Origin: an uncultured Bacillota bacterium
GTDB taxonomy: Bacteria; Bacillota_I; Bacilli_A; RF39; UBA660
DNA length: 64,000 bases
Reading direction: 5' to 3'
Assembly (NCBI GenBank): GCA_947650795.1
Contig: CANSWR010000001.1
Location: 272-64,271, forward strand
Part shown: positions 15,009 to 39,420 of the stretch, in pieces
Position numbering within the stretch: position 1 is the first letter of the stretch
Layout of the letters: each line of letters starts with the position of its first letter
Translations under genes and position numbers: made by a program
Notes under the pieces: generated by a model
What the model saw: only the letters and a program-made list of their open reading frames with translations
Told to the model about the DNA's origin: nothing
Databases searched by the model: none

Positions 15009-15084
15009 TTGTTCACCACCTAAATTAATTATACTATAAAACAGCAAAAAAGCAAACTATTATTTCGGTATGGCAAAAATTAAC

Positions 15085-22139: not shown

Positions 22140-22219
22140 AATTTAACCACAAAAAAAACACATGTATCCTATGTGTTTGATTTCCTTTCATAATTTAAAT
22201 TTGACTTTTTCCAATTTTA

Positions 22220-22678: not shown

Positions 22679-22696
22679 AAAAGAAGAGAATAAAAG

Positions 22697-22912
22697 CTAT
22701 TTACTGCGATTACTTCTCTTCTTATAGTTATTTAGATTTAGGGGTGCTTTATCCTTATGAACATATTCATCCAAAAACATAATGATATGTTTGTTGAAAA
22801 CAATTTGCACCATAAGAATCATCCCCAAATCTCTAAACAAAACCATTAAATTGTTATTTATTATATATTTTTTTGGGAAAAAGTCAATAACATTTAATGC
22901 AAAATAAAACAA
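22697..22912 (-). CDS. Hypothetical small protein
   Basis: ORF only. Confidence 0.2.
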   Translation of the reverse strand: MFYFALNVIDFFPKKYIINNNLMVLFRDLGMILMVQIVFNKHIIMFLDEYVHKDKAPLNLNNYKKRSNRSK

Positions 22913-23012
22913 TCAGCAGCTCTCTTTTGCTAATTGTTTCATTTTACTATATTTTATCATCTTGACTTTATTATTCAAGGGTATTTTTGGGGGTAAATTT
23001 GGGGGTACTTTT

Positions 23013-23327
23013 TTAAATTGTACTTTTACATCTATTTACTATATTTTCAGGAGTATTATTTTTAATAAAATCTACTAACTCTTCATAGTAATTAGTAGCA
23101 TCTATAACATTTTTATATTTTTCTAATAGTAGTGGACTTGCAATCAAATCTTTATCTTTTATATATAAATAAACTTCATAATTATTTGAATCAGTACACT
23201 CATTAAGCATTACACCAATGAAACCCTCCATGAAAGTATTTTGTGATGTCTTAAATATCGTTTTATCTTCTTTGATATTACTAATACAATATTTTTGTAA
23301 GTCTCGGATTATTTCTGATATATTCAT
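23013..23327 (-). CDS. Hypothetical protein
   Basis: 104-aa ORF; no motif. Confidence 0.3.
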   Translation of the reverse strand: MNISEIIRDLQKYCISNIKEDKTIFKTSQNTFMEGFIGVMLNECTDSNNYEVYLYIKDKDLIASPLLLEKYKNVIDATNYYEELVDFIKNNTPENIVNRCKSTI

Positions 23328-23445
23328 TTGAACCTCCCATTAACTAAGTAAATAGTATTATAACAAAATAACAATTTTAATCAATCCCAAATACCTAATT
23401 ATTTCTTCATAATTATATTATAGCTTTTTTTCAAAATTATGTATA

Positions 23446-24153
23446 TTATTTTACATATTTTAATATACCTTTATTTTTATAATATGAATCTATTAACATT
23501 TCATAATGTATTTTCATTTCATTTATTACATGATAATACACTTCTAAAGGATTTTTATCTTTATTTTTTCTTTGAAATTTTTTAAGATTTAAATGAAAAT
23601 TTTGAAATAAATATAAAGTAGAAAAATTATTAATGTTAGTCCATAAAAGACTTTTTAAAAATTTCATTATAGATTCTAAATCATCATTATTATCAAGATC
23701 TATACTTTGTAAATTTTTTATAAATGGTTTAAATAAGACCCTATCATCTATAAAAAGAATTGTTTCATAAAAATTATTAACTATTGCTTTGTCCATACTA
23801 TTAATAAAATATTGCATATTGTTATTATCTCCCCAATATTTCTTACATAATAGAAATTCTGGAACTTGATTCTCAAGAATAAATTCCAACATTAAATCTT
23901 TATGACATATTGTAGGAAATTTTGAATCAAAATAATAAATAAAATTATTTAGCATATCAATGAATTGTTCATTTCCTGTTAGGTAACCTTTTTTGACTAA
24001 AGAAGTTATAATGGTAGGTGTTTTTTCATCCGTAATTAGTTCTATTGCTTTATCTAATATATTTTTATTAATTAATTGATATATTCTTCCACCATTATCC
24101 GATTTTTTTAATGCTAATTTCTTTAATTGTTCCTTTCTTACATTATTCTTCAT
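23446..24153 (-). CDS. Hypothetical protein
   Basis: 235-aa ORF, divergent from the XRE regulator. Confidence 0.35.
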   Translation of the reverse strand: MKNNVRKEQLKKLALKKSDNGGRIYQLINKNILDKAIELITDEKTPTIITSLVKKGYLTGNEQFIDMLNNFIYYFDSKFPTICHKDLMLEFILENQVPEFLLCKKYWGDNNNMQYFINSMDKAIVNNFYETILFIDDRVLFKPFIKNLQSIDLDNNDDLESIMKFLKSLLWTNINNFSTLYLFQNFHLNLKKFQRKNKDKNPLEVYYHVINEMKIHYEMLIDSYYKNKGILKYVK

Positions 24154-24243
24154 TTAAATCACCTGTTGAATATCATTATAACACAGTTTTACCAAATGAC
24201 CCATAGTTTTGCGAATATTATTCGTTTTAATGGGAAAATTATA

Positions 24244-24678
24244 ATGGTGAAAGATATGAATGACAACAATTTAAAATTTTGTAGAGAAGAACTGGAAATG
24301 ACACAATCAGAACTTGGTCTTGTCTTTGGAGTTACTGGATCAACTGTTGCCGGTTGGGAAAATTCACATGATACTATGCCTCTTTCTAAATTAATAAAGT
24401 TCTCTAATTTATACCATTATTCACTTGATTATGTAACAGGATTATCTAGGGAAAATAATTACTACAAGATTGATAAATTAGATAAAAAGAAAATAGGTTG
24501 TAAATTAAAAGAAATAAGAAATAATTTAGGATTAACACAACAAGAGATTGCTGATGAGTGCATGATATCTCAAACAACATATAGTAATTATGAAACAGGA
24601 CAATATCTAGTTAGTTCGTTAGTTTTATATACAATATGTGTTAAACATAATTTATCATTTTATGACATATTAAAATAA
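24244..24678 (+). CDS. Tandem XRE-family HTH regulator (two HTH_3 domains)
   Basis: Two HTH signatures: MTQSELGLVFGVTGSTVAGWENS and LTQQEIADECMISQTTYSNYETGQ. Likely start at MVKDMNDNN or MNDNN (GGTGAAAG RBS); the track ORF starts earlier, at 24127. It is the only plus-strand gene in the ICE, divergent from 23446-24153 and convergent on the defence operon. Confidence 0.6.
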   Translation: MVKDMNDNNLKFCREELEMTQSELGLVFGVTGSTVAGWENSHDTMPLSKLIKFSNLYHYSLDYVTGLSRENNYYKIDKLDKKKIGCKLKEIRNNLGLTQQEIADECMISQTTYSNYETGQYLVSSLVLYTICVKHNLSFYDILK

Positions 24679-24696: not shown

Positions 24697-25242
24697 TTAA
24701 TTGTTCATACAAAGATTTAATATATCTTCTTCTGAGATTTCTTTATTGTATCTATCATTATATTCTGATATAAAATTGTAAATATTATTAATATAATCAT
24801 CTATTGTAGTAGCATCCTTTAATAATTTTTCTTCTAATATTTCAATACCACCTAAAACATATTGTTCAAATATTTTATTGCATTCCTCTTTTTCTTCGGT
24901 TCCAGCATTATATCTAAATGCATTATCTAATCTATCCTCAATAGATAATTTATCCTTATTGTGAAGTAACATAATTAATTCATAATTAAAATTAAGTGTT
25001 TTAGATTCGCGGTTCATTTGATCAAAATTAATCTTTTTAACATTATCAGTTGCAGGTCCTTCATCATCTCTCTTGGACATTCTTCCATATAAATAACCGA
25101 CAATAGGAGCAATTATAAGAACATCAATATTTCTTTCAAATAATTTAAATTTTGTATCACTATCTATTTCAGTAGTTAACTGTGTAACAATATTAGCGTG
25201 TTTACCTTTAAAATTATAGTCACGTTCAAACATATTACTCAC
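24697..25242 (-). CDS. Hypothetical 181-aa protein, translationally coupled partner of the SMC-like ATPase (last gene of the cargo operon)
   Basis: Start overlaps the stop of 25235-27256 by 8 nt. No recognised motif. Confidence 0.4.
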   Translation of the reverse strand: MSNMFERDYNFKGKHANIVTQLTTEIDSDTKFKLFERNIDVLIIAPIVGYLYGRMSKRDDEGPATDNVKKINFDQMNRESKTLNFNYELIMLLHNKDKLSIEDRLDNAFRYNAGTEEKEECNKIFEQYVLGGIEILEEKLLKDATTIDDYINNIYNFISEYNDRYNKEISEEDILNLCMNN

Positions 25243-27256
25243 CTACCTTTGTAATTTTACTATCAACAGGATATTCCTTATCTCTTAATGATACTTCATA
25301 TTCTATACCAATCTTAGATTGCATTTCTTTCTTTGCAATATTACCATCAGAATCTTTTATAAAGATTATTACTTGCCTGGCAATATTTGGAATAACCTCA
25401 CATATATTTTTTATTCTTCTTTGGTCGAAAGATGAAAGTGGAGCATCCATAACTAATGGATATTCATCTGTAACAATACTAGATTCTTCTGTCTTATCAT
25501 TTACTTTTTGTTTAGCTAAATTAATAACTCCAACAATGAATGCAAATATAATTGAATAACTCTTTGCAGTATTTGCATCAATATTTGCACTATTATCTTG
25601 AAGTTCATTTACATATGAAGTTATTTTATACTTTTCATCAATATTAATCGTCATACCACCAGCATATATTTGTTTAAATAAATCGTTAATTTGATCTTCA
25701 AGTTTTTCTCTTGTTTTAGCCTCTTCAAAATCATATGTTTGTTTAAACTTATTATAAGCTGCTCTTGCATATAAGATTTGTTCTTCAATTGATTTATTCT
25801 TTTCAATCTTCATTTGCAATCTACTTATTTCAGCTTCGGCATCTTGTTTTTCTTTTTCTAACACACCATTTTGAATTTCTAATCTCTTAAGTTGATCTCT
25901 TAAATCTTTAACTGTATTTTCCATATCATTTTGTCTACTCTTAAGATCTTTAACTTTAGTATTAGATGATTTTAGAATTGATTTATCTATCTCACCTATT
26001 TGATGCTCGATTTCTTCAATTTTATTACTACATCCTCTAATTGTACTTAAAAGAGATTCGATATTAGAAAAATAATTATCACTACTTTTAACTAGCATTC
26101 CAGCCCTATCTTGGAATTGACTTATTGCACTACCTAATGATTGAGGAGGAATATATTTTAATAATTGCATTAATTCTTGAACAGCATCAGATGTAGGATC
26201 AGACAAATCGCATCCACAAATACATTTTTTTCTATTCATTAAGTATTTAATAGTTTCATCTCTAACAGATGGTATACCTTTATCTACATTATCAGTATTT
26301 TTTAATTCTATTAATGCATCATTAATTAACTTTCTAGACATAAAACTAAATGTCTGTTTAGTGAAATTACTCATTAATGTTGTAATTGTGTTATTTTTAT
26401 GATTAATCTCCATTTGAAGATTTGCATTTAATTGATTTAATTCTTGTTGTAGCTTTTCCGCTTCAGCAAATGATAAAATCTCTGCTTTAGCTTTTTCTAT
26501 TTCTTTATCATAATATGATAATTCATCTTCCATTTTATCAATTTGTTCAGAATTCTTATCAATTTTATCGGAATTTGTATATATTATTTCTCTTAATCTT
26601 CTAGTTTCACTATCTCCAGCTGCATCTAATTGTGCATTATATTTACCTATAACACTATTTTTTACATTAGGATTTAAATGTTCAATAGCTTTAGTTAAAG
26701 CAGTTAAACCAAGTATATTTTGAACAGCTGTTTTAAACTCTTCACTTTTACCGCTATTAACTTCTCCAGCCATTTTTTCAATTCTTTCACCATCAAAGAA
26801 GAAATATTTTGATAATGATTCTGGTAAAATATTAGCTATTGTAGACAAGTTCTTGATTGGATTAACTATTACTGTTTGTCCATCTGGTTGTTTTTGATAT
26901 ATTTCTAAAACTGGATTTTCAGGTTTAACATTTCCACTTGTATCTTTTTTATATGTTTGTTTACGTATTATAGTATAATCAACTTCATTGTGTTCTAATT
27001 CTAATTTTGCGAATACATTTTGTTCAGTTCCACCCATCATCTCTTTTTCAACAACACTATTTAACACAGATTTATTTTTAAATCCATCTGTTTTAGAATA
27101 TAAAACCCATTGAAAAGCTTGAGCTAATGTAGTTTTTCCTGCTCCATTTTCGGCCATAACAAGTGTTATATTTTTTTCCTTATCAGTAGAGAATTCAATA
27201 ACATGTTCACCTTTAAATGGTCTAAAATTAGTTAAAGTTAATTTTTTTAGCAACAT
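25235..27256 (-). CDS. DndD-like SMC/RecF-type ABC ATPase with long coiled coil
   Basis: N-terminal Walker A LVMAENGAGKTTLAQAF. A ~300-aa coiled-coil middle. C-terminal Walker B/D-loop YPLVMDAPLSSFDQRR, matching the DndD/PtuA-like pattern (hhhhD-x-P-L-x-x-x-D). Confidence 0.7.
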   Translation of the reverse strand: MLLKKLTLTNFRPFKGEHVIEFSTDKEKNITLVMAENGAGKTTLAQAFQWVLYSKTDGFKNKSVLNSVVEKEMMGGTEQNVFAKLELEHNEVDYTIIRKQTYKKDTSGNVKPENPVLEIYQKQPDGQTVIVNPIKNLSTIANILPESLSKYFFFDGERIEKMAGEVNSGKSEEFKTAVQNILGLTALTKAIEHLNPNVKNSVIGKYNAQLDAAGDSETRRLREIIYTNSDKIDKNSEQIDKMEDELSYYDKEIEKAKAEILSFAEAEKLQQELNQLNANLQMEINHKNNTITTLMSNFTKQTFSFMSRKLINDALIELKNTDNVDKGIPSVRDETIKYLMNRKKCICGCDLSDPTSDAVQELMQLLKYIPPQSLGSAISQFQDRAGMLVKSSDNYFSNIESLLSTIRGCSNKIEEIEHQIGEIDKSILKSSNTKVKDLKSRQNDMENTVKDLRDQLKRLEIQNGVLEKEKQDAEAEISRLQMKIEKNKSIEEQILYARAAYNKFKQTYDFEEAKTREKLEDQINDLFKQIYAGGMTINIDEKYKITSYVNELQDNSANIDANTAKSYSIIFAFIVGVINLAKQKVNDKTEESSIVTDEYPLVMDAPLSSFDQRRIKNICEVIPNIARQVIIFIKDSDGNIAKKEMQSKIGIEYEVSLRDKEYPVDSKITKVGE

Positions 27257-27453
27257 TTTATTTCCTCCTCTATGATTTTTTCAATTTTCTTCTTCATATC
27301 TTCATCATTTAATTCTCTAGTTTTAACATTATTGTTTTCTAAAGTTATAATGGTTCTTACAATTCTAGTTAACTTTTGGTTATCAATCATACTTTGTTGT
27401 TCAAAATTTTGATTTGATGATTGAGTTTCAGTTTTAACTTCTTCATTATTCAT
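27247..27453 (-). CDS. Small 68-aa protein overlapping both neighbours (operon linker protein)
   Basis: Overlaps the upstream stop by 8 nt and the downstream start by 10 nt. Acidic, ends in CC. Confidence 0.3.
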   Translation of the reverse strand: MNNEEVKTETQSSNQNFEQQSMIDNQKLTRIVRTIITLENNNVKTRELNDEDMKKKIEKIIEEEIKCC

Positions 27454-29641
27454 AATAGTTTACCTCCATATCCATTTCTTCTTCATCGTTATCATCCTCA
27501 TTTAATCTATAAGTATCAGTTAGCTCATATATTAACTTATCAGATTCCATTTTACTCATAGCTAATCTATTAAATTCAATCATACGATTAACTTCATTTC
27601 TTACCATTGACTTTTCACATTTTATTTCGTCATATGTTAAATTAATAGCTTCATCTAAAGGTCTTGGTAAAGTTATGAAATCATATATTATTGCAAATTC
27701 TTTTCCTGGATATTTTCTTAATACTCTACCTCGCCTTTGAATATATTCTTTTGGATTAGTTGTACTTGCTAAAATAAATGCCGTTTTTATAGCAGGAATA
27801 TTAACACCTTCATCTAAACATTTTATTGCAATTAACGCTTGTAAATAATCTCCATCAAAGAATTTTCTTCTTAATAAATCTCTAGTATAACTATCTTCTT
27901 TTGATGTAAATTGTGCAACATTCATTTTTAATTCTTTTCCAAGTAATTCTGTTATAGCATCTATTTGTCTCATATCTTCGCCATTTTCATCTTGCTCTGC
28001 AATTTTAGTAGCACCACAATAAACCAAGATATGATTATCATCTTTATAAGGTTTAATTTCTCTAGCAAGTGCTGATACTTTATTAAATGCGCCTGCAACT
28101 AATCTTGATCTCTTTTGAGCAATTATTTTACCTTTATCGGATAATTTAGTTTTGCCATTCTTTTTTAATATACATTTTGCAATTTCTTTTGATAAACTGT
28201 GATATTCATCTAATTCTTCATCGGTTAAATATACTACAATTGGGTGATATTGATATGGGGTTAAGAATTTTTCTCCATTTTTTCCTTTAATAGCATCTTC
28301 TAACGTAAACTCAATACATTTTTCACCAAAATAATCTAAAAGTGCTTGTGTTCCTTCTTCATCTCCATGACGTTCTAATGTTGCTGAAAGAGCTAATCTA
28401 TAATTAAATTTATCAGTTAGAGTCTTTTTTAAGTTTTCGGCACCAAAATTATGTGCTTCATCAACTACTAATAAAACATTTCCTCTTATATTATTAATCT
28501 GTGATTGAATATAATCTGTAGCAAAAGTACCGTTAGTACAAACAAAACAAAAGAAATTTCTTACACCTAGATTATAATCCATTATTGCCATTTTAATTCT
28601 TTGTTTAAAATCTTTTTGTTCAGAAGAACTGTGTCCAATAATTGGGTGGATATTAAAATTAATAATATCTTCTACCCATTGATTTACTAAATGCTGATAT
28701 GGGCAAACAATTACAACTGCCAATTTACCTTTTAAATCTTTATATAATCTCGTTATTGCTCCTAACCCAGTAAAAGTTTTACCTGTTCCTGTTGCCATAT
28801 CAAATATACCACTATAATTATTATGACTCCAATTTTCTATAGCTTCTTTTTGATAATCATGTAATGTAACTCCAGCAGGTATTTCTGGTGAATTAGTAAC
28901 AGTTTTTAATTTTTCTATTGTTAAATCTATATGTTTAGTACTAAATTCTTTTTGATCTATTTCCCAATCTATACTATCCTTTCTATAAGATAATAATTTA
29001 TTTTTTACAACTGTAGGAAAATCAAAAATCATAGCACTAGCATCATCATTTTTCCATAATTTGTTAAATGCATTCTCTTTCATTGAAACTCTTTCAGGAT
29101 CGCTCCATGAAGTAAAAACATCAACGATTTCATAATTATTAATAAATGCATTTTCAGATTCGTTCATAGAACCAGAGAAAGCAACTACATTTCCTTCAGT
29201 ATCATACATTAAACCAAGTTTCTCATGATACAAACCTAATTTCTCATTTTTTAATGAAAAAGCAATTTTTATATCCAATTTCTCTTGTGCTATTAAATTA
29301 GCTAATAAATTCAATCTCTCTTCTTCAAAATAATTTTGTGGTTCTGTTATATATTGCATTAGAGCTCGTTCTACAATATCTTCTCTTGCTTCATATCCTT
29401 TATTAATTGCTTCAATATCTTCTTCCGATAAATGTGGTGAGGCAATCAATTGGATTTTTCCATTGTTGTTAATTAAGTGTGTTATTCCATATGATATTTC
29501 TAATAAAGATGATGATGAGAAAAATCCAACACTTCTTTTATATAAATTTGATTCTTTTAATAAAGGAATATAGAAATCATTTACTATATTATCTCTAGGA
29601 GATCTATATTCTTGTTTTAAATTAACATCTAATAAACTCAT
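27446..29641 (-). CDS. PLD-family (HKD) nuclease domain fused to an SF2 DEAH-type helicase
   Basis: N-terminal HKD motif LGLYHEKLGLMYDTEGNVVAFSGSMNESENAF (H-x-K-x4-D...GSxN). Helicase motif I FDMATGTGKTFTG, motif II LLVVDEAHNFG, and C-terminal motif VI-like QRRGRVLRK. Confidence 0.7.
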   Translation of the reverse strand: MSLLDVNLKQEYRSPRDNIVNDFYIPLLKESNLYKRSVGFFSSSSLLEISYGITHLINNNGKIQLIASPHLSEEDIEAINKGYEAREDIVERALMQYITEPQNYFEEERLNLLANLIAQEKLDIKIAFSLKNEKLGLYHEKLGLMYDTEGNVVAFSGSMNESENAFINNYEIVDVFTSWSDPERVSMKENAFNKLWKNDDASAMIFDFPTVVKNKLLSYRKDSIDWEIDQKEFSTKHIDLTIEKLKTVTNSPEIPAGVTLHDYQKEAIENWSHNNYSGIFDMATGTGKTFTGLGAITRLYKDLKGKLAVVIVCPYQHLVNQWVEDIINFNIHPIIGHSSSEQKDFKQRIKMAIMDYNLGVRNFFCFVCTNGTFATDYIQSQINNIRGNVLLVVDEAHNFGAENLKKTLTDKFNYRLALSATLERHGDEEGTQALLDYFGEKCIEFTLEDAIKGKNGEKFLTPYQYHPIVVYLTDEELDEYHSLSKEIAKCILKKNGKTKLSDKGKIIAQKRSRLVAGAFNKVSALAREIKPYKDDNHILVYCGATKIAEQDENGEDMRQIDAITELLGKELKMNVAQFTSKEDSYTRDLLRRKFFDGDYLQALIAIKCLDEGVNIPAIKTAFILASTTNPKEYIQRRGRVLRKYPGKEFAIIYDFITLPRPLDEAINLTYDEIKCEKSMVRNEVNRMIEFNRLAMSKMESDKLIYELTDTYRLNEDDNDEEEMDMEVNYYE

Positions 29642-29653
29642 TTGTTCACCACC

Positions 29654-30781
29654 TTATAAAGATTCTAATGCATTAATTAATAAATCAATATCATTTTTTG
29701 TATTAAAGTAATTTAAACTAATTCTTACAGTACCATTATACTCCATAGAGCCAATAAAGTCATGTATTAACGGTGCACAATGATACCCAGTCCTTACGTA
29801 TATACTATATTCATCATCTAAAATAGATCCAACATCATCTGATGAATAATTATTTATTCCTATAGATACCATGCCAAATATACTCTCATATTTATCTGGT
29901 AAAAATAATTTAACTTTTTTTAATGTTTTTAATTTTTCAATTAAATAATCAGTCAACTCTTTTTCATGATTATAAATATCAACATTATTAAGCCAATCAA
30001 TACTTGCATCTAATCCACAAATAGCTACAATATTTGGGCTTCCAGCTTCATATCCATCAGGTATTGTATCTGGCATATTTGGGTTCATTGTGTCAGAACC
30101 AGTTCCACCAAAAAGACTTTGTTTCAATTTATCGCTTTTTAATTTAATATAACCAGCTATACCAAATGATGCATATAAAGATTTATGTCCAGCAAAAACT
30201 ATATAATTAATATCTTCACTATTCTTAATAGGAACAATTCCGTATCCCTGTGAAGCATCAAGTATATTTATAGAATTATATTTTTTTGTTAATTGAAATA
30301 TTTTATCATAAGGTAACACATATCCTGTAACATTACTTACTTGTGAAAGAAAAATAGCTGCCGGATTATGTATTGCAAACATATCACTAATTTTATCATA
30401 ATTAGGTTTCCAAGTTTGTTTATCAAAAGGAAGTGTTTCAATATTAATATGTATTCTTTTCTTTAATTCTTCCAATGGTCTAACTATTGAATTATGCTCA
30501 AAAGGTGAAATATAAACATAATCATTTTCTTTTAACTCTATTCCAAATATTAAATCATTCAATGCTACAGTTGCAGAATTTGTATAGATAACTTTTGCAT
30601 TTTTAATATTATTTAACTTTAGTATTTTATTTCTAACAGTCTCTTTTGCTTCAGATGCCTCTCTAGCACATTTATAGCTTCCTCTACCTGTATTAAATGC
30701 ATTTCTATTTGCTTTATCGAGTGCTATGTACACATTTTCAGGTTTGGGATATGTTGTTGCCGCATTATCTAAATATATCAT
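29654..30781 (-). CDS. Group II cysteine desulfurase (DndA/SspA-like sulfur donor for DNA phosphorothioation)
   Basis: Class-V aminotransferase fold. PLP-lysine motif FAGHKSL. Active-site Cys in RTGYHCAP (SufS/CsdA-type). Confidence 0.8.
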   Translation of the reverse strand: MIYLDNAATTYPKPENVYIALDKANRNAFNTGRGSYKCAREASEAKETVRNKILKLNNIKNAKVIYTNSATVALNDLIFGIELKENDYVYISPFEHNSIVRPLEELKKRIHINIETLPFDKQTWKPNYDKISDMFAIHNPAAIFLSQVSNVTGYVLPYDKIFQLTKKYNSINILDASQGYGIVPIKNSEDINYIVFAGHKSLYASFGIAGYIKLKSDKLKQSLFGGTGSDTMNPNMPDTIPDGYEAGSPNIVAICGLDASIDWLNNVDIYNHEKELTDYLIEKLKTLKKVKLFLPDKYESIFGMVSIGINNYSSDDVGSILDDEYSIYVRTGYHCAPLIHDFIGSMEYNGTVRISLNYFNTKNDIDLLINALESL

Positions 30782-30789
30782 ATCTCACC

Positions 30790-33700
30790 TCACATATATT
30801 TTTTCATAATATCAATTAATACACTTATTTTTTCTTGTTCTGTTAATGAATCACCATATTCATTTATTATTTCTTCAATATTATTTTTCATTGTATTTCC
30901 TAATGCTGATAATTCATCACTGTTTGATAAATATTTTTCTATTTTTTCATCGCCACTTATTAAAGTAATTTTATTTGAACTATCAACACTGTTTTGATCT
31001 AATTCATTAATATTATTAATTATTTTTTCTAATTCTTCTTTAAAATTATTTATCTCATTAGGTTGCCAGTCTTCAATATAGAAACCTGTTACTATTTTTG
31101 ATATTTTTTCAATTATGTCATTTTCATCATGAGTAGTTAGTTCTTTAACATATTCAATTAGTTCTCTAGTCTTAATATCAAAAATCATATTAGATGATTC
31201 TAATTCATTATCAATTAACCAATCCTTTAATAGCGAATTTAAACTTCCCTTGTGATTTTTGTTAAATATTTCCTTAGTTTCCTTTATTACATACTCACAA
31301 TAAGAATTCATAAAACTATCAAAAGTTTGCTTCATATCCTTTATTAATTCTTTTATTTCTTCATAATTATTTGTACCAAATATTTCAATCAATTTTTGAT
31401 ATATAAATTCATTATTATTGATATCTGGTCTTAATAATTCATTTTTAATGATAATATATTTATCATTTATATTTAAATAATTGTAATCATTTGAATATTC
31501 TCTCAAAATTCTTGGTAAAGACAAAATCCATCTTCTCATTCCATCAACCAATTTTTTTAGATTAATTCTTTGATTATCAAGATTAGGAATATCATATATA
31601 TACATCAAATTTGATAAATATTTAATTTTGTCTGTTGTACCTTTTTCAGTTAAAATGTAATATTTTTCTGGATTATCATTTATTTTTATTAAATTATTGG
31701 CATCTAGATCTATTTCTTTATTCATAAAATAAATAATAATAATATCTGAATAATTGTAAAGAGCTATTGATAATAATATAGGAATAATTCCCTTTCTAAT
31801 ACTATAAGGTTTTGATTCTAATTTTTTATATAATTCACTAAAGCTCAATTTTTGGTTTTCACTATTTTCAACAAACGAATTTATTATCTTTAAAACTTCT
31901 TTAATTGATGATGTATTCTTTTTATCTACGATTGCTTTATAAATAGTAGCTTCAGCACTTGTCTTACTTTTTATTAAGGATAAGTCATTATTTAATACAG
32001 TATCAATTACAATATCTCTTGCTTTTTTTATTGGAGCGGATAGTTCTCTTTTATTTATCATTTCATTGTTGACTATAGGTGTTTTTGAATATATATCAAA
32101 GCATATATTAGATAAATATGAACTCAAATTTGTAACATTTTTATTTTTATTATTCATATATAAATATTCTTGTATGTTATCTGATGAAAAATATATTGAT
32201 AATTGTTCTATGAGTACTTCCATAGTTTCTTTCTTTATTAAAGAAAGTTCGTTATTAGTTTCGTCATTTTCTTTATTATTAATTAAATATTCTATCGATT
32301 TATACTCTCTTAATAATGAAACAATATTTTTAGGAAATATAGTTTTAGGTATTCTTAATACTACTCTATCATTTTTTAATTCAATAAAATGATCAATTAT
32401 ACTTTGTACATTTCTTGAATTCCTTATTAGATTAATAATAACACCATCGCAATAATTATTTTCAAATAAAATATCTAGATTTTTAATAGATAATAGTTCT
32501 TCTTCTGTCATATAAACATTATCAAAAAATCTTGTAATTTTAAATTCTTCATTATATCTACGTGGAAGAGAATATTTTTTTGTTTCTACCTCATTAATTA
32601 AATCTTTAATATTAATATCATAAAATTGATTTTCACTTAGTCTTTTAATTTCTTTAGATAATTCTCTATTGTATATATTAGTAAAATCAAGTTCATTTGT
32701 AATTTTTCTTCGTTTTATTATGCTTTTATCTATTAGTTTATTAATTATTTCTTCATATTTTGAAGAAGCCATATCAACTGATAATCTCAAAGTATTATCA
32801 TCAGGAACAAGTATTTCAGTCTCATTAATCATATAAATAATAGATAATGATTTAATTAAATCTTTTTCTTCTAACTCGTTGCATTTTGCTAAAGCATTTT
32901 CTGTCTTTAACCAAATATTCCTAATAACATCTGTTGTTTCTTTTTTGAAAAGAGGTCTAAAATAATCATATATCTTGCTAACATTAAATAATCCTTTACT
33001 GTTATTTGAAATAAAATACTTTAGTCCATTTTGATCATCATCAGTTAAAAACGTAAATAATGTTCTTTCATTTTGAGCTATTTTTTCAGATAATTGTATA
33101 AGACAGTATACTGTTAATGGATTTAATGGATAACATCCTCTATATAGAATATCTTCAATCTTATCTACATTTTTAAATATTGTTAATGATTTTATTTCAT
33201 CATATGTGTTTAAATATTTATTATAAAATGTATCAAATATTTCATCATATCCATCTTTTTTATTTAGAGCATATGAAACTATTTCATAGTTTTGCTCAAT
33301 ACTTCTATTAAAATATAATTCTTTAAATCTTCCTTCAACTGTTTTAAAAGCATTTAATTTGTCTTCTGTTAAATTTTTTGCATATTGATTGATTGTTTTA
33401 TGTGTTATACAACTTAAATGTATTTGTTCTGTTTCTCCAGTTCTATTTGCTAATTCAGCAAAATCTTGTAGTAATTTTAAGTCTTTCATCATATGTGAAT
33501 TTTCAACATATTCTAAAAATTTACTGAATTCATCAAATACAATGAACATTCCAGAATATCCATATTCAGTTATTTCGTGAGCCATATCTTTATATATTTT
33601 AACAATATCTGAATTAACTAATGGATTAAATTCTTGTCCATGTAATATACAACTATATACATTTTTAAATATTGCATAGTATTCTTCAGAATAATTTTTT

Positions 33701-34299
33701 AATCCCTGCTTTAAGTCTTTAAATGAACAATTATATTCAGATAAACATTTTTTAATTTCACTTATTACATCTTTATATTCATCTTCCCATTTTAAGATAA
33801 CTTTTAATGCAATATCAAAATAGGTATTTACTACTATAGATGAAAGTTTTTCTCTTTCTAATGACTCTGATAAAGCTAATAAGAATGCCTGATTTAAATC
33901 ACCATAATTACTATTAATGATAATTGGCATTAACTTAGTTTTTGTATCTCGTATATTTTTAATTAATTCATATGTATCGGAATCTACTTTTTTTATTTTA
34001 TTTAAAAAGATATCAATATCCTTTTTGTCTTCAGTATTATAGTTATTTAATAATGTGATAAGAACAAGTAATAAATGAGATTTACCTTTTCCATATGGGC
34101 CAATTAATGTAGTTGCTCTATTCTTAGAATTTAATACACTATTAAAATACTGGCCTAATAATTCACAACCATCTTTTGTGGGAATATACTCATTAATTTT
34201 TGATATGTTATTAATATCAAATTGCAAATTAACAGAGTATTGAAAATTCTCATTAACACTTATATAGTCTTTGTATTTCATACTATACACCTCATTCAA
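30790..34299 (-). CDS. Large P-loop ATPase of the DUF499-like class (SspC/BrxC-like)
   Basis: Walker A near the N-terminus: LIGPYGKGKSHLLLVL. 1169 aa, helical. Lies in the operon between the 281-aa gene and the desulfurase, as sspC does in sspABCD loci. No methyltransferase, PglZ or Lon nearby, so a BREX assignment is disfavoured. Confidence 0.5.
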   Translation of the reverse strand: MNEVYSMKYKDYISVNENFQYSVNLQFDINNISKINEYIPTKDGCELLGQYFNSVLNSKNRATTLIGPYGKGKSHLLLVLITLLNNYNTEDKKDIDIFLNKIKKVDSDTYELIKNIRDTKTKLMPIIINSNYGDLNQAFLLALSESLEREKLSSIVVNTYFDIALKVILKWEDEYKDVISEIKKCLSEYNCSFKDLKQGLKNYSEEYYAIFKNVYSCILHGQEFNPLVNSDIVKIYKDMAHEITEYGYSGMFIVFDEFSKFLEYVENSHMMKDLKLLQDFAELANRTGETEQIHLSCITHKTINQYAKNLTEDKLNAFKTVEGRFKELYFNRSIEQNYEIVSYALNKKDGYDEIFDTFYNKYLNTYDEIKSLTIFKNVDKIEDILYRGCYPLNPLTVYCLIQLSEKIAQNERTLFTFLTDDDQNGLKYFISNNSKGLFNVSKIYDYFRPLFKKETTDVIRNIWLKTENALAKCNELEEKDLIKSLSIIYMINETEILVPDDNTLRLSVDMASSKYEEIINKLIDKSIIKRRKITNELDFTNIYNRELSKEIKRLSENQFYDINIKDLINEVETKKYSLPRRYNEEFKITRFFDNVYMTEEELLSIKNLDILFENNYCDGVIINLIRNSRNVQSIIDHFIELKNDRVVLRIPKTIFPKNIVSLLREYKSIEYLINNKENDETNNELSLIKKETMEVLIEQLSIYFSSDNIQEYLYMNNKNKNVTNLSSYLSNICFDIYSKTPIVNNEMINKRELSAPIKKARDIVIDTVLNNDLSLIKSKTSAEATIYKAIVDKKNTSSIKEVLKIINSFVENSENQKLSFSELYKKLESKPYSIRKGIIPILLSIALYNYSDIIIIYFMNKEIDLDANNLIKINDNPEKYYILTEKGTTDKIKYLSNLMYIYDIPNLDNQRINLKKLVDGMRRWILSLPRILREYSNDYNYLNINDKYIIIKNELLRPDINNNEFIYQKLIEIFGTNNYEEIKELIKDMKQTFDSFMNSYCEYVIKETKEIFNKNHKGSLNSLLKDWLIDNELESSNMIFDIKTRELIEYVKELTTHDENDIIEKISKIVTGFYIEDWQPNEINNFKEELEKIINNINELDQNSVDSSNKITLISGDEKIEKYLSNSDELSALGNTMKNNIEEIINEYGDSLTEQEKISVLIDIMKKYM

Positions 34300-35137
34300 A
34301 ATGTTCTTTCATAATCTCATCAATTGACATTTTTGTCGTAAAATAAATCATATTCAATCCAGCAGTTCTATTAATAACGATTAAATCTTGTTTTTTCATT
34401 TCATCTAAATATTCATTTATTAGATTTTTATCTAAATTTAATAGTTTAGCTGGGCTATTATCTAATTTTATTAAGTCATCAATACTTAAATAATCTTTAT
34501 CCTCAGATAAAATAACCATCAAATAATAAACAATCAAATAATTTAAATTTCTAAAATCCGGTTTTACTCTTTCATAGGCATTTATATCCACTTTTTTAAT
34601 TAGATTTAATTCAGATAAAGGACAAATAAAATTATTTTCTGGATTATCGATTTTTTCATCAATAGAATATGTTTTTATAATCATATTAACTTCATCTTGT
34701 AAAATATTCTCACTATATTCTAATTTATTATTATTTAAAATTTGTGATATTTGTTCAAAAATATCTCTTTTTGAAAACACTTTCATTGTACATTTATTAA
34801 AAAACAAGTTATAAATATATGAATCTTCAATATTTAAAATCATTTTAATATGTATTAACCACCATGAAAAATTATCTTCTAAATATGGATCATATTTATC
34901 AATTAATTCACCAAACTTAGATAATGTGATAGAACGATTATTTTCTTCAATAAGACAAGTTGCAGACATCCAATATTTTAAGGATTTAACCATATTTGTA
35001 CCAATGCCTAATATATCTGTTGCATCAGCAGAAGAAAATGCTTTAGAATCTTCTTTTATTGTTCTAATCCCTTTTGCTAACCATCCCTCTCTAATTGAAA
35101 AACTTTCATGTCTTTTCATTTTTACTTTATTAATCAT
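34292..35137 (-). CDS. 281-aa protein in the position and size of SspB (DUF4007-like candidate DNA nicking/targeting subunit)
   Basis: Overlaps the downstream ATPase gene by 8 nt and follows the PAPS-reductase gene by 4 nt. Assigned from context and size only. Confidence 0.3.
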   Translation of the reverse strand: MINKVKMKRHESFSIREGWLAKGIRTIKEDSKAFSSADATDILGIGTNMVKSLKYWMSATCLIEENNRSITLSKFGELIDKYDPYLEDNFSWWLIHIKMILNIEDSYIYNLFFNKCTMKVFSKRDIFEQISQILNNNKLEYSENILQDEVNMIIKTYSIDEKIDNPENNFICPLSELNLIKKVDINAYERVKPDFRNLNYLIVYYLMVILSEDKDYLSIDDLIKLDNSPAKLLNLDKNLINEYLDEMKKQDLIVINRTAGLNMIYFTTKMSIDEIMKEHFE

Positions 35138-35141
35138 AGTT

Positions 35142-36893
35142 TTACTCCTTATCTTGTTTAGTTCTTAATACCTTTTTCATATAGCATCCACCACTAAAAT
35201 GTTTAACACATTCTAAACATCCTATACACTTCTTTTCATTTATCGTATATGATATATCAAATTTTTCTCCATCTTGTTTATTATTATGTTTAATTGTAAT
35301 TGCATCATATTTGCAAACACTTTCACAAGCCATACATCCAATACATGTTTGAAATTTTGTAATTTGGTTTTTTATAAGCATTTCACGAATTTTAGGATTG
35401 CTAAATACTTTAGTTTCCTTTAAAACAGAAACCTTTAAAAGTTTTTGTCCTACTTTACCAGTTAATTTTAATATTGGCTCTTTCGTTCTTTTATCTAAGA
35501 TATATACTTCTCCTAATCTCTTATTTCCAATATTAAAATCAAGTAATCCAAATGGCTTGAACAATTCGTACAATGTGTCATTAATTGGTTTATTTAAATC
35601 AAAATTAAATGCATTTTCTTCTAATACACAAGGTTTAAAAGATAGTATTGCATTTTCACTATAATTTAATCCATTCCCACCTTGTCTGGCTTTCCATCCA
35701 CCAGAAGAAATATATTCTTTTGGATCTGGTTTGCCGATTTGTGCAGCAAAATCTAATAATATATCATGAAATTTAATATATTCATCTTCCATATATATAC
35801 TGGATAAATATTCAGACCAATAGGAATTATTTGGGCAACACCAGCATCCAACCCTTGAAAATCCTTTTCTATAGGCACTATTAAATGGTATTTTTCTTGT
35901 TAATATATATAGCCACACATCAAAATCCATCCAGTCAATAATTGGTGCTACTGTTTCTTGCTTAGTTATTTTTGCACCTTTACTCTCCCTATCATATTTA
36001 CTACGAGCAATTGATTCGTTTCTCCTTAATCCTTGAAAAGTTAAAATTTTAGTTTTATTTTTAAAAGTTGCATCTATTTTTCTAGTAATGGAGCCTGTTT
36101 TGAAAATAGTACAACACCATCTCATCATTCTACTTGGAGGGCCTATAACTTTGCATAATTCATTAAAATTCTGTTCTTTATTTTTCGCTACAAGTAAAGG
36201 TGTTGTAGGGTGTATTTTTTTGAATTCTTGTAAATAATCTCCTGTCTCAGGATATTCAAGAGTTGTATCTCCATAGATGTGTATTATCTTATCTGTTCCC
36301 AATGAATTCATTACCAAATCACTTGTTACCGTAGAATCTTTACCACCTGAAAAAGAAACAAACATTGAATCTACATTGTATTTTTTTGAAATGTTTTTTA
36401 TGTAATCATGTGCTTCAGTAACAATTGAGCTATATCTGACACTATTTGCTTCAATGAATTTTCTTATATATGATTCTTCATAAAATGACTCAACATATTT
36501 TTGATTTTCTTTTTCGTTTTCTTGAATTATTTTTTTAACATCTTTATAATTAATATTATTAACAATATTTTTTACAGAAAATTTTATTTTTTCACCATTT
36601 ACAAAATAATAATTACCAGAAGTATTCCATACTGACTTTCCCACATATTTAAAAGGTTCTTTTTCAATAGCCTCTAATAATAATCTTTCTTGAGGAAATA
36701 CAGGCCTTATATCTGTTCCTATATACTCGGATTTCTTTCCACATATAGAGCAAACATTGTCAAATAAAGGTATATTACAATGTTTGCAATAATATATTTC
36801 AGATTTATCAATATAAGTTCTATTATTGCATACAGGACAGGTACTTGATTCACATATTAAATTGTCACAGTTACTACATACATATTTAATCAC
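35142..36893 (-). CDS. PAPS-reductase/ATP-pyrophosphatase family protein (DndC/SspD-like) with N-terminal 4xCxxC zinc ribbons and C-terminal double [4Fe-4S] ferredoxin motif
   Basis: PP-loop FVSFSGGKDSTVTSDL. N-terminal CSNC...CPVC...CKHC...CSIC. C-terminal CIGCMACESVC and CIGCLECVKHFSGGC. Confidence 0.75.
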   Translation of the reverse strand: MIKYVCSNCDNLICESSTCPVCNNRTYIDKSEIYYCKHCNIPLFDNVCSICGKKSEYIGTDIRPVFPQERLLLEAIEKEPFKYVGKSVWNTSGNYYFVNGEKIKFSVKNIVNNINYKDVKKIIQENEKENQKYVESFYEESYIRKFIEANSVRYSSIVTEAHDYIKNISKKYNVDSMFVSFSGGKDSTVTSDLVMNSLGTDKIIHIYGDTTLEYPETGDYLQEFKKIHPTTPLLVAKNKEQNFNELCKVIGPPSRMMRWCCTIFKTGSITRKIDATFKNKTKILTFQGLRRNESIARSKYDRESKGAKITKQETVAPIIDWMDFDVWLYILTRKIPFNSAYRKGFSRVGCWCCPNNSYWSEYLSSIYMEDEYIKFHDILLDFAAQIGKPDPKEYISSGGWKARQGGNGLNYSENAILSFKPCVLEENAFNFDLNKPINDTLYELFKPFGLLDFNIGNKRLGEVYILDKRTKEPILKLTGKVGQKLLKVSVLKETKVFSNPKIREMLIKNQITKFQTCIGCMACESVCKYDAITIKHNNKQDGEKFDISYTINEKKCIGCLECVKHFSGGCYMKKVLRTKQDKE

Positions 36894-37017
36894 ACAATAT
36901 CCCTCCTATACATTTGCATCCTCTTAAATATTATATCATATTTTTTACTGGAGAAAAATATTTTTATTAAATGTTTCTCCAGTTTTTATTTTGCAAAAAA
37001 ATTAGTAGCAAAAGCTA

Positions 37018-39420
37018 CTAATCAATATATTGTAATATATCAAAATCATTAATATCCTCATCATAATAGTCTTTACTCCTGTAAACACAGTCGATAGAAT
37101 TATCAAAATAATATTTTTTCTTATCTATAAATTCTTTTATATAGTATTCATATAAATCAATGTTATATTTTTCAAGAATATCTTTTTTTATTTCGCTAAC
37201 AAATATTTTGTTTTTCGTTACAAAACTATTTATGAATTTCTCTCTTGTTGCTTGTTCATCTGTTTTAATAAATACTACATTATTTTTTACAGTGAAAGTT
37301 TTAATATTAGGTATTGTAGATATAATAGTTTCATAAAAACAATCAGGAAAATTATGATTTTTTAAATTAGTTAAAAAATTATCTTTGTCTAAAGTGTATA
37401 GATTAAAATACTCATTTTCAGAAATAACTTTTTCTATTTCATTGATAAATTCTTTTATATTATCTTTACTTATTCCTAGCTCATTTAATCTTTTTATTGT
37501 AATATATTTTTCATTTTCAATTTCAAACAAATCAAGATTATATATAAATTTGTATAAATAACTAGAAAAAGTTGAACCTATTTTTTTCATTTCAGGTTTT
37601 ATTTCATAATAATCATTATTTAAAATTATATTACGTAAATATCCTTCTAAATTAGTAATAGAACTTTTCATTATATAGTTTCCTCTTAGCTTATATCCTA
37701 ATTTAGACATATTTAGATTATTAATCAGTTTAAAATCATTTACATCAAATAAATCTGTCAACAATTCTTTTATAGTTAAAATAGAATATATATCTTCTGT
37801 CAATCTTTCTTTTAATATATCCATTTGCTCTTGAGTAAATTCAGGACATTCACTTATAATTTGACCATTAGTAATATATTTACTAAAATTGTTTACTAAC
37901 AAAGCTCTAAAGGTATTATTTTTATGTCCATAATTTTGATATGCATAATCAACGAATTCATCTAAACTAATAGGAGACAATTCATGAATAAGATTATCAA
38001 TAAAGGCATTTTTATCATCACAATCAATAAATATATCAGGCATTCTTGAATAAATAATTTTACCATTATAATTTCCAATAAATTTTCTTAATAAATTATG
38101 TAATTCATATTCATTCTTTATATTTATATTTTTCATTAATAATTCATTGTTATTAAAGAAAAACTCAGCTGAATAATCACCAGATTCTACTTCTAACATT
38201 TTCTGAAGAGCTTTAACATCATCCTCATCAAGAGCATCGATATCATAATATCTATAATATCTACCTGCATCGCATAAAACATAATTAGATCTATTTAGTA
38301 TTGAATCAATATTTCTAAAATCCGCCTCACTTATAAGTTCAACATCTAAATTATTAGACTTTATTATCTCATTATATTCATTCATAATTTCAGAGTATTC
38401 CATTACTTTATCTGAACGTTTTAATATAGCATTTAATATATTAATCTTTTTAACAACTATGTTTTCACCTTTATATGAAATTAAATTATATTTCTTTTTT
38501 AATATAGCTAATTGTCTTTTATCCAAATTCCAACTATCTATTAATTCAGAAGGTTCAGTATCTCCCATTTTATATTTTTCACGTAAATAATAATATATAT
38601 ATTCATTTACATTAAAAAATTCACAAAATAGTTCACAATCGAAATTATAGGTTTCAAATATTTCTCTGTATTTTTCTTCTTCTCTAGTTGTAACAAATTT
38701 TTTAATTTCTTTCTGAATTATTTGTCTGATTCTTTCTCTTGTAATATTATATTCACTACCTATAGATTCCAAAGTTCTTCCAGTTAATTTTTTCAAAACC
38801 ATATCTTTATGATTTGAATCTTTTATTTTTTGTAATTCTTCTTTTAGTCTAGGTTTAACTAATGAATAATTAAGGTCCTCTTTTTTTAAAACTTTTTTAT
38901 TCAAAAAATCATTTAATAAAAATGATAAATCAGATGTATCATAATTACATTTTAAAACTTCTTCTTCAAGTTGTTCATAATAAAAAATATCATAACCATA
39001 TATATTTTTTATTAATGTTAATAATAAGTTCGATGTTAATTTTAATTTAATATGATTATTCATAATAAATTCATTATAACTCTTCATTATTTTTCTAAAT
39101 GTTGAATCGCTAATATAATCCTTGTGAGCAAGATTATCATTAATATCATCTATTGAAATATTATTTTTCACCAATAATCCAGTTATAGTTTTAGACAACC
39201 CAAAATACATCAAATCATAAATGGAAAATGTCTGTTCGTTATTAACCAATTCGTAAATTATATTCTTAATTTCTTCGGCTCTTTCACTTTTTGTACCAAG
39301 AACCTCATTTAAGCAATTTGGATTATTAATAATGCTATCACAAGTGATATTATTTTCTTTTAATCTTAATGCTGTATTATAAGGTATTCCAAAATCACAT
39401 AGTCTAAATATTGAATGCAT
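37018..39420 (-). CDS. 800-aa protein with sigma-70 region-4-type HTH and two RNAP alpha-CTD-like helix-hairpin-helix modules
   Basis: Sigma r4-like segment LTGRTLESIGSEYNITRERIRQIIQKEIKKF. N-terminal HhH-like repeats (LCDFGIPYNTALRLKENNITCDSI; IYDLMYFGLSKTITGLLVKNNISIDDI). Separated from the defence operon by 124 bp. Confidence 0.4.
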   Translation of the reverse strand: MHSIFRLCDFGIPYNTALRLKENNITCDSIINNPNCLNEVLGTKSERAEEIKNIIYELVNNEQTFSIYDLMYFGLSKTITGLLVKNNISIDDINDNLAHKDYISDSTFRKIMKSYNEFIMNNHIKLKLTSNLLLTLIKNIYGYDIFYYEQLEEEVLKCNYDTSDLSFLLNDFLNKKVLKKEDLNYSLVKPRLKEELQKIKDSNHKDMVLKKLTGRTLESIGSEYNITRERIRQIIQKEIKKFVTTREEEKYREIFETYNFDCELFCEFFNVNEYIYYYLREKYKMGDTEPSELIDSWNLDKRQLAILKKKYNLISYKGENIVVKKINILNAILKRSDKVMEYSEIMNEYNEIIKSNNLDVELISEADFRNIDSILNRSNYVLCDAGRYYRYYDIDALDEDDVKALQKMLEVESGDYSAEFFFNNNELLMKNINIKNEYELHNLLRKFIGNYNGKIIYSRMPDIFIDCDDKNAFIDNLIHELSPISLDEFVDYAYQNYGHKNNTFRALLVNNFSKYITNGQIISECPEFTQEQMDILKERLTEDIYSILTIKELLTDLFDVNDFKLINNLNMSKLGYKLRGNYIMKSSITNLEGYLRNIILNNDYYEIKPEMKKIGSTFSSYLYKFIYNLDLFEIENEKYITIKRLNELGISKDNIKEFINEIEKVISENEYFNLYTLDKDNFLTNLKNHNFPDCFYETIISTIPNIKTFTVKNNVVFIKTDEQATREKFINSFVTKNKIFVSEIKKDILEKYNIDLYEYYIKEFIDKKKYYFDNSIDCVYRSKDYYDEDINDFDILQYID

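Follow-up and report, generated by a model that had tools for sequence, protein, structure and literature searches.

An Ssp-type phosphorothioation module coupled to a PbeABCD effector cassette in an operon that fits the cargo of an integrative conjugative element

A contig of an uncultured Bacillota bacterium (assembly GCA_947650795.1, contig CANSWR010000001.1, positions 272 to 64,271; 64,000 nt, hereafter the window) carries eight consecutive genes on the minus strand (24697–36893) that probably constitute a single phosphorothioate (PT)-based self/non-self defense system assembled from two known modules, an Ssp-type marking module and a PbeABCD effector cassette. This reading builds on the assignment of the proteins to families, on their intact catalytic motifs, on the translational coupling of the genes, and on conserved synteny, and it upholds the general interpretation as PT-based defense given in an earlier note on this DNA. 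Both modules are already known, every protein belongs to a described family, and their combination is not a new principle. What is new is the widespread pairing of a BrxP-resembling Ssp module with PbeABCD, which is apparently undescribed.

The Ssp-type modification module

The first four genes encode what the earlier note had already recognized as the enzymology of DNA phosphorothioation. The first (35142–36893) codes for an SspD-like PT sulfurtransferase of 583 aa that combines two zinc ribbons at the N terminus, a PAPS-reductase/PP-loop ATP pyrophosphatase domain with the motif SGGKDS (residues 182–187), the cysteine motifs CC and CWCC, and, at the C terminus, a ferredoxin domain that carries two 4Fe-4S motifs. 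It matches PAPS_reduct (4.6e-33) and Fer4 in Pfam. Its strongest PADLOC match is BrxP (2.3e-84) across profile positions 21–517 of 779, which corresponds to BrxP minus its DUF4007 part; the matches to SspD (9.5e-12) and DndC (2.5e-11) are weak. The PP-loop, the cysteine pairs CC260-261 and CWCC350-353, and all eight ferredoxin cysteines are invariant among homologs (40 of 40). A long PAPS-reductase architecture with an extra domain and a ferredoxin occurs both in BrxP and in “a subset of SspD” (PMC12839542); the 583-aa protein belongs to this long SspD subtype.

The second gene (34292–35137; 281 aa) encodes SspB, a DUF4007 protein (Pfam 3.3e-74 over the full length; PADLOC SspB 1.9e-52) with three helix-turn-helix/winged-helix modules. 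In Ssp systems, SspB is responsible for DNA recognition; here it is encoded by a gene of its own, in contrast to BrxP, in which it forms one protein with the PAPS reductase. It is followed by SspC (30790–34299; 1169 aa from a TTG start), a BrxC-related P-loop ATPase that scores far better as SspC than as BrxC in PADLOC (2.5e-104 vs 6.4e-28) and carries PF19557 (BrxC-PglY_N) in the precomputed annotation. Its Walker A (G67/G70/G72-K73-S74) and Walker B (D256-E257) residues are invariant in all 49 homologs. The fourth product, an SspA-like class-V cysteine desulfurase (29654–30781; 375 aa; Pfam Aminotran_5 2.6e-63), is the predicted sulfur donor. Its PADLOC scores for SspA (8.8e-28) and DndA (8.8e-27) are nearly the same, and it reaches 350 bits for TIGR01977 (cut-off 377); the pyridoxal-phosphate-binding lysine K200 and the catalytic C335 are invariant (48 of 48 homologs). 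The four components of an Ssp module are all represented, with a DUF4007 SspB, an SspC with intact Walker motifs, a PP-loop SspD, and a cysteine desulfurase that has retained both its lysine and its cysteine.

Other affiliations of these four genes are much less probable. A Dnd-type modification module was rejected because the matches of the operon proteins to TIGR03183 (DndC, 38 bits; cut-off 290) and TIGR03185 (DndD, 113 bits; cut-off 246) are far below threshold, and PADLOC detects no DndB, DndF, DndG, or DndH among the eight operon proteins. The relationship to bacteriophage exclusion (BREX) type 4 is closer. BrxP is a fusion of SspD and SspB, BrxC is a homolog of SspC, and the brxPC genes produce PT in Bacteroides (10.1101/2024.06.03.597175), so that the first three genes are equivalent to an unfused BrxP-BrxC in the same order; judged by its domains, the modification module of the window is a split form of BrxP-BrxC. 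Together with the far higher score of the 583-aa protein for BrxP than for SspD and the secondary matches to BrxC, this could be taken to indicate a BREX type 4 variant. However, neither PglZ nor BrxL is encoded among the eight operon proteins or the window open reading frames (ORFs) of at least 500 aa, all of which were scanned, although PglZ is kept in all 457 type 4 taxa analyzed (PMC12839542). DUF4007 is a separate gene, and the ATPase is an SspC by score. A BREX type 4 assignment is therefore rejected as very improbable.

Even less credible is that the four genes serve a different kind of sulfur transfer, for instance in tRNA thiolation or cofactor synthesis. Enzymes of the PAPS-reductase/PP-loop type do take part in tRNA thiolation, as do cysteine desulfurases, and the NCBIfam matches of the 583-aa protein are all sub-threshold, but DUF4007/SspB and SspC are specific to PT and BREX type 4 systems, the genes are coupled to a PT-dependent effector, and the locus appears to be mobile cargo. 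On these grounds, the reading was rejected.

The PbeABCD effector module

The four downstream genes, which the earlier note could not place in any described family, are identified by their profile matches and motifs as the named PbeABCD cassette, also known as the CxC ABC-ATPase/DndE system. In the original description, PbeA is a protein with phospholipase D (PLD), ResIII, and helicase domains, PbeB has 66 aa, PbeC is an ATPase, and PbeD has 152 aa (Xiong et al. 2019; PMC6459918). More recently, PbeA was re-annotated as an HKD-superfamily 2 (SF2) helicase, PbeB as a small protein that evolves rapidly, PbeC as an ABC ATPase of the CxC type, and PbeD as a cognate of DndE (Rakesh et al. 2024; PMC10853773). 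The operon encodes all of these: a PLD/HKD-SF2 PbeA, a small PbeB in the slot between PbeA and PbeC, a CxC-type PbeC, and a DndE-like PbeD with a dnd_assoc_4 match.

PbeA (27446–29641; 731 aa) consists of a single-HKD (PLD-family) endonuclease domain and a DEAH SF2 helicase. It matches the PADLOC profile with 3.8e-249 and TIGR04095 (dnd_restrict_1, “DNA phosphorothioation system restriction enzyme”) with 514 bits (cut-off 600); its Pfam domains are PLDc_2, ResIII, and Helicase_C. Among 50 homologs, the residues H139, K141, D147, and G157-S158-x-N160 and the helicase motifs I, II (DEAH), and VI show no or almost no variation.

The next gene (27247–27453) encodes a small, charged, helical protein of 68 aa; it shares 8 nt with the end of the PbeA gene and 10 nt with the start of the PbeC gene. 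It has no match in the PADLOC, Pfam, and NCBIfam scans, for which no PbeB profile exists, but its position, size, and conservation identify this presumed “linker protein” as PbeB. An ORF of 49–73 aa occupies the gap between PbeA and PbeC in nearly all related loci examined (the one exception is locus L043). These ORFs share a helical core (...N-x-K-T-R-E...I-E-E-E-x-K-C-Y/C), and most of them overlap PbeC by 10 nt. Size and position also agree with the 66-aa PbeB of Haloterrigena jeotgali (PMC6459918).

PbeC (25235–27256; 673 aa) is a sister of DndD (PADLOC PbeC 1.5e-108 vs DndD 1.6e-36; merely 113 bits for TIGR03185) and contains a coiled coil with a C345-x-C347 zinc hook. Both cysteines are invariant in 46 of 46 homologs, as are the Walker A motif and the motif D604-A-P-x-S...D611. 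The protein is therefore not the SMC ATPase it had been taken for but an ABC ATPase of the CxC type (PMC10853773). The co-occurrence of an SspC-like and a DndD-like ATPase in one operon, to which the earlier note had drawn attention, is real. The last protein, PbeD (24697–25242; 181 aa from a GTG start, more likely 178 aa), is a putative partner of PbeC with a DndE-like double ribbon-helix-helix fold. It is recognized by TIGR04062 (dnd_assoc_4, 7.9e-5), by PF27807 in the precomputed annotation, and by its fold. The link to DndE is visible by fold only, and a profile search of the PDB with the PbeD alignment returned merely chance matches at the level of calmodulin.

The only Pbe system tested is dndCDEA-PbeABCD of H. 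jeotgali, which lowers plaque formation about 10^4-fold, requires host PT, and spares PT-marked virus (PMC6459918). Protection depended on host PT and not on the Dnd proteins themselves, and neither toxicity nor DNA cleavage was seen (PMC6459918). The earlier note had stated that membership of the downstream genes in an already named system would speak against its interpretation; they do belong to one, but because PbeABCD is itself PT-dependent, the general idea of a modification-dependent defense survives. None of the eight operon proteins or the scanned flanking genes has a PADLOC or Pfam match to the known Ssp effectors SspE (DUF262-DUF1524) or SspFGH.

Operon layout and transcription unit

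In the order of transcription, the eight ORFs encode proteins of 583, 281, 1169, 375, 731, 68, 673, and 181 aa; the earlier note had delimited the operon correctly but spoke of nine genes, although its own list names eight products. The distances from each stop codon to the next start are +4, −8, +8, +12, −8, −10, and −8 nt, which bears out the tight coupling in a single operon, with gaps of at most 12 nt or overlaps of 8–10 nt, that had been postulated. SspC and PbeD probably start some codons later, at the ATG at 34281 (preceded by GAGGTG; 1163 aa) and the ATG at 25233 (preceded by AGGTGAG; 178 aa), respectively, as in the public gene calls for the same contig. With these starts, the respective junctions become +10 and +1 nt, and all junctions still measure at most 12 nt. 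The motifs that had been named from the sequence (SGGKDS, both Walker A motifs, HCAP, HKD, DEAH, and hhhhD-x-P-L-x-x-x-D, which reads LVMDAPLSSFD in the 673-aa protein) are all present and are each invariant in 40–50 homologs. Strong family matches for each ORF of at least 70 aa and the same gene order in more than 90 independent loci show that the arrangement is not due to chance.

The operon is preceded by a putative control region (36894–37023, minus strand). In it, a terminator-like hairpin (37023–37000) closes the upstream gene for an 800-aa protein, and there is a further inverted repeat of 9 bp. An extended −10 element of the form TGnTATAAT (TGATATAAT) and an AGGAGG ribosome-binding site come ahead of the GTG start at 36893. 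The hairpin, the extended −10 element, and the ribosome-binding site make the eight genes look like one transcription unit, which fits a transcription separate from the upstream gene. A general scan for sigma-70 promoters is uninformative at a GC content of 25% (139 sites found, 156 expected).

Conservation of the Ssp-Pbe pairing

The pairing of the two modules is conserved far beyond the window. A genome scan limited to one genome per species yielded 53 loci with PbeA proteins of 45–96% identity, and a metagenome scan with the PbeC alignment added 80 loci. Where the sequence extends at least 6.5 kb upstream of PbeA, SspB and SspC are located beside PbeABCD in every genome locus (47 of 47); where it extends at least 7 kb upstream, Ssp genes are present in 45 of 46 metagenome loci. 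Among the complete genome loci, 28 have the order D-B-C-A-Pbe and ten the order B-C-D-A-Pbe. A short, canonical SspD (265–297 aa) occurs in five loci, one of which is ordered Pbe-sigma-BCD; in locus L020, the SspD beside Pbe matches the canonical profile with 3.8e-136. The pairing has thus been kept through three gene orders and through the replacement of the long by the short SspD. The junction between SspA and PbeA, which measures 12 nt in the window, spans 8–25 nt in most D-B-C-A loci and about 200 nt in the B-C-D-A class.

According to the record titles, the hosts belong to Bacillota, Bacteroidota, Alphaproteobacteria, Spirochaetota (Treponema), Cloacimonadota, and Gastranaerophilales. Cultured carriers include Flavonifractor sp. 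An82, Clostridium sp. CS001, Ruminiclostridium sufflavum DSM 19573, and Pontibacillus marinus DSM 16465. In ENA, the window corresponds to a contig of metagenome assembly ERZ14425201; its closest relatives are found in metagenome-assembled genomes (MAGs) labeled Bacilli or Clostridia. A PbeA with 96% identity is encoded on a 3.7-kb contig binned in a “Methanobacteriaceae archaeon” MAG (L006; CAZHBQ010000127.1), which is probably a binning error or else reflects a recent transfer.

More distant PbeA relatives, sampled on plasmids, share 33–40% identity with the PbeA proteins of this clade and are either Dnd-linked, as in Pontibrevibacter (dndBCDE, desulfurase, sigma-like protein, PbeABCD), or stand-alone, which suggests that the Ssp-linked Pbe proteins form a clade of their own. 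Stand-alone PbeABCD cassettes are present on a Lactobacillus plantarum plasmid, in Pseudanabaena, and in metagenome locus L127.

The linkage has a counterpart in published surveys. No sspE or sspFGH was found near 83.9% of 2,678 sspBCD loci, and other effectors were proposed (Wang et al. 2021; PMC8092258). Conversely, 320 of 553 pbeAC loci were called “solitary” in a study that predates the discovery of Ssp (Xiong et al. 2019; PMC6459918). Its supplementary file 6 lists Pontibacillus marinus DSM 16465 (NZ_AULJ01000001, pbeA at 223330–225303) as lacking DndC, DndD, and a methyltransferase (PMC6459918). In the same record (L055, 213327–235483), however, SspB (1.1e-55), SspC (9.7e-115), and a short SspD (7.4e-14) are located directly upstream of PbeA. 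At least this locus, published as “solitary”, is in fact Ssp-linked.

Proposed mechanism and alternative readings

By analogy with characterized systems, we infer the PT chemistry, the existence of a target motif, the dependence on PT, and a restricting mode of action. The SspA-like desulfurase would mobilize sulfur from cysteine as a persulfide, and the SspD-like PP-loop/Fe-S enzyme would place it, driven by ATP, on a backbone phosphate of the host DNA at sites chosen by SspB and the SspC ATPase. The PbeC ATPase and the DndE-like PbeD would scan DNA and read its PT status, and the HKD nuclease-helicase PbeA would translocate on unmarked invader DNA and nick it, cleave it, or block its replication; the small PbeB may have a regulatory or adaptor role. 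Like the effector of DndCDEA-PbeABCD, that of the window is probably active only if the host DNA carries PT, and it probably spares PT-marked DNA.

Several points weigh against this mechanism or against so close a union of the two modules. The capacity of PbeCD to read Ssp marks is an assumption. Ssp-type PT in Vibrio is confined to one strand, and the mark of the reference Ssp system is of the single-strand CpsCA type, whereas Pbe has been tested with Dnd-type PT, which is present on both strands. The action of Pbe is itself disputed: no DNA cleavage was seen in 2019 (PMC6459918), whereas Rakesh et al. argue for cleavage by the HKD domain, possibly of the cell’s own DNA (PMC10853773). The window also differs from most of its relatives by the lack of a sigma-70-like gene after PbeD. 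Lastly, correlations of pairwise identities are high within the Ssp module (rho 0.86–0.93) and within Pbe (0.66–0.74) but lower across the modules (0.44–0.62), which suggests that the modules have been exchanged among cassettes and have not strictly co-evolved. The pattern depicts each module as cohesive and the family as persistently paired, with some swapping of partners within it. With respect to the disputed nuclease, the invariance of the HKD site throughout the Ssp-linked clade favors a real nuclease activity, as Rakesh et al. argue.

The lower cross-module correlation would also be expected if two independent systems merely lay side by side in the cargo of a mobile element or a defense island, one of them a stand-alone PbeABCD and the other an orphan SspABCD whose role would be epigenetic or redox-related. 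Both kinds of loci exist, since stand-alone PbeABCD cassettes are represented by the three cases named above and orphan sspBCD loci are common (PMC8092258). Nevertheless, independence is quite unlikely in view of the short junction between SspA and PbeA, the presence of Ssp throughout nearly all of this Pbe clade (47 of 47 genome loci and 45 of 46 metagenome loci), the persistence of the pairing through changes in gene order and SspD type, and the dependence of PbeABCD on host PT in the one case tested (PMC6459918).

A single system might also be organized differently. According to a proposal for CxC ABC-ATPase/DndE systems (Rakesh et al. 2024; PMC10853773), PbeC and PbeD would form a second target-recognition pair for the modification, like DndD and DndE, or a sensor of the modification status, and PbeA would be the sole effector; if PbeB were lost or modified by a phage, PbeA might cut the cell’s own DNA, with an abortive infection as the outcome. 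The DndE fold of PbeD, the sister relationship of PbeC and DndD, the invariant HKD residues of PbeA, and the small size of PbeB and its fast evolution outside the short core all agree with this proposal. So do the evolutionary rates: SspB, SspC, PbeC, and PbeD evolve fastest (median pairwise identity 27–31%) and PbeA slowest (50%), as expected if both ATPase/reader pairs determine specificity. By contrast, dndCDEA of H. jeotgali alone gives rise to PT, pbeB, pbeC, and pbeD are required for defense and not for modification, and neither toxicity nor cleavage of DNA was observed (PMC6459918). SspBCD alone, moreover, is sufficient for PT in the characterized Ssp systems described in the literature. 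This organization is hence unlikely, although less so than two independent systems, and the division into Ssp marking and a PbeABCD effector is preferred.

Mobile-element context and neighboring genes

The location of the operon fits the cargo of an integrative conjugative element (ICE), as had been proposed. Upstream are the genes of a VirD4-type coupling protein (39840–41951), a relaxase, a VirB4-like ATPase, and an M23 peptidase, accompanied by an adhesin with thioester and SpaA domains and a ParB-like protein; downstream is a large serine recombinase (19872–21554). The operon is therefore flanked by conjugation genes on one side and a recombinase on the other.

The gene immediately upstream (37018–39420, minus strand) encodes an 800-aa protein whose sole recognizable motif is a sigma-70 region-4 helix-turn-helix (aa 212–237; Pfam Sigma70_r4 8.9e-6). 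It was considered as a ninth, system-specific component, but it is conserved just upstream of the operon only in the eight closest Ssp-Pbe loci, has unrelated partners elsewhere, and is separated from the operon by the terminator-like hairpin. It may be an accessory gene, but its membership is uncertain. Distant homologs (25–31% identity, some with a match to the RpoA C-terminal domain) adjoin further candidate defense proteins (HEPN_Swt1, HIRAN, UvrD-PDDEXK, and WYL), and others adjoin Metallophos/DUF2130. With the sigma-like genes of other Pbe loci, the protein has only the region-4 helix-turn-helix in common.

In 47 of 66 metagenome loci (among L066–L145), the gene immediately after PbeD encodes a sigma-70-like protein, which appears to be the usual ninth component of Ssp-Pbe cassettes. 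The proteins have 353–418 aa with Pfam sigma-70 regions 1.1, 2, and 4, and their genes mostly start at most 25 nt from the PbeD stop; further cases are L016 (14932–16023), L020 (15389–16450), L025 (14866–15951), and L051 (14492–15748). A 1017-aa “sigma factor-like HTH” protein abuts PbeA on a Dnd-Pbe plasmid. The Pbe papers examined do not mention a sigma-like gene. In the B-C-D-A clade (L035, L036, L037, L042, L045, L049, and L058), PbeD is followed, at about 14.8–16.9 kb, by a protein of about 330 aa without a Pfam match and then by an HNH endonuclease. In another clade, a different uncharacterized protein of 287–582 aa occupies this slot, and several loci encode a DndB-family (DGQHR) protein farther downstream.

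In the window, PbeD is followed by a convergent gene (24127–24678, plus strand) for a protein with a double Xre-type helix-turn-helix, whose end is 19 nt from the PbeD stop. Its PADLOC matches are HTH_VI, RmrA-like, and “control protein”; a homolog with 37% identity is found only in L007. A regulatory role, either for the ICE or for the defense system, is conceivable. The stretch from the operon to the serine recombinase contains four small ORFs of 235, 104, 152, and 75 aa (21912–24153, minus strand). None of them has a PADLOC match, the two scanned against Pfam (235 and 152 aa) have no match there either, and they occur only on the contig of the window itself (L001) and in none of the related loci.

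Past the conjugation genes, at the right edge of the window (61136–63983, minus strand), lie JetD of a type I Wadjet system (PADLOC 7e-98) and the C-terminal half of JetC (8e-135). Outside the ICE, three overlapping genes (11502–15047, minus strand) encode a radical-SAM protein with a helix-hairpin-helix, a DUF4130 protein, and a chaperonin-like protein of the Cpn60/TCP-1 family (517 aa). The coupling of a thermosome-type chaperonin to a putative DNA-repair pair is unusual.

Significance and comparison with known systems

Mix-and-match among PT modules is already an accepted theme, and the Krishnan et al. 2020 paper reportedly holds the first description of CxC systems. Rakesh et al. 2024 cite the same work for SspB and SspC (PMC10853773). 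Full-text searches of the literature found no paper on the pairing of Ssp and Pbe, but Krishnan et al. 2020 may already depict the neighborhood, and the claim to novelty is therefore kept modest. When the earlier note spoke of an uncharacterized variant, this holds for the pairing, of which no description or test was found in the literature, but not for its two halves, which are both described.

Two puzzles meet at this locus, namely that most sspBCD loci have no known restriction partner (PMC8092258) and that more than half of the pbeAC loci were reported to lack a modification partner (PMC6459918). The operon and its more than 90 syntenic relatives indicate that the two sets are often each other’s partners. 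There is about an even chance that Ssp-Pbe represents a distinct, widespread, and unnamed PT architecture, the third effector pairing of Ssp after SspE and SspFGH, in which a CxC-ATPase/DndE reader known only with Dnd marks has specialized to Ssp marks that may be single-stranded. Such an architecture would usually include a co-transcribed sigma-70-like ninth component and would explain part of the “orphan” sspBCD loci (84%) and part of the “solitary” pbeAC loci (58%). Bacteria of the gut and the environment commonly carry the pairing, and the locus illustrates how an ICE can carry a full mark-and-restrict system as cargo. It also offers a concrete, clonable 12-kb cassette for asking whether Pbe reads Ssp-type PT, whether its HKD domain cuts, and what each ATPase/reader pair contributes.

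Among the known systems, DndCDEA-PbeABCD of Haloterrigena jeotgali A29 (PMC6459918) has the same four-gene effector cassette in the same order, located directly downstream of a PT module whose last gene is a cysteine desulfurase. The modification half, however, is of the Ssp type in the window (SspB/DUF4007 and SspC) and contains DndD and DndE in H. jeotgali; consequently, the window operon carries two unrelated pairs of an ATPase and a DNA reader. Moreover, the host of the window is bacterial, the locus resides on a putative ICE, and the function of the system is predicted.

SspABCD-SspE of Vibrio cyclitrophicus FF75 and SspABCD-SspFGH share with the window a desulfurase, a DUF4007 protein, a large P-loop ATPase, and an enzyme of the PAPS-reductase family, as well as the logic of a PT mark and an effector that senses it. 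They differ in the effector, which in the window is PbeABCD in place of SspE or SspFGH, in the gene order, which is D-B-C-A in the window, and in SspD, whose long form with zinc ribbons and ferredoxin is nearer to BrxP than to the canonical SspD profile of 277 positions.

BREX type 4 (brxP-brxC-pglZ-brxL), for which PT production has been demonstrated in Bacteroides salyersiae (Yuan et al.; PMC12914056), has the same PAPS-reductase architecture of PP-loop, extra domain, and 4Fe-4S ferredoxin, and the order SspD-SspB-SspC in the window is colinear with BrxP (PAPS reductase and DUF4007) followed by BrxC. A cysteine desulfurase is frequent also in type 4 loci (PMC12839542). In the window, by contrast, DUF4007 is a separate protein, PglZ and BrxL are missing, the ATPase is by score an SspC and not a BrxC, and the effector is Pbe.

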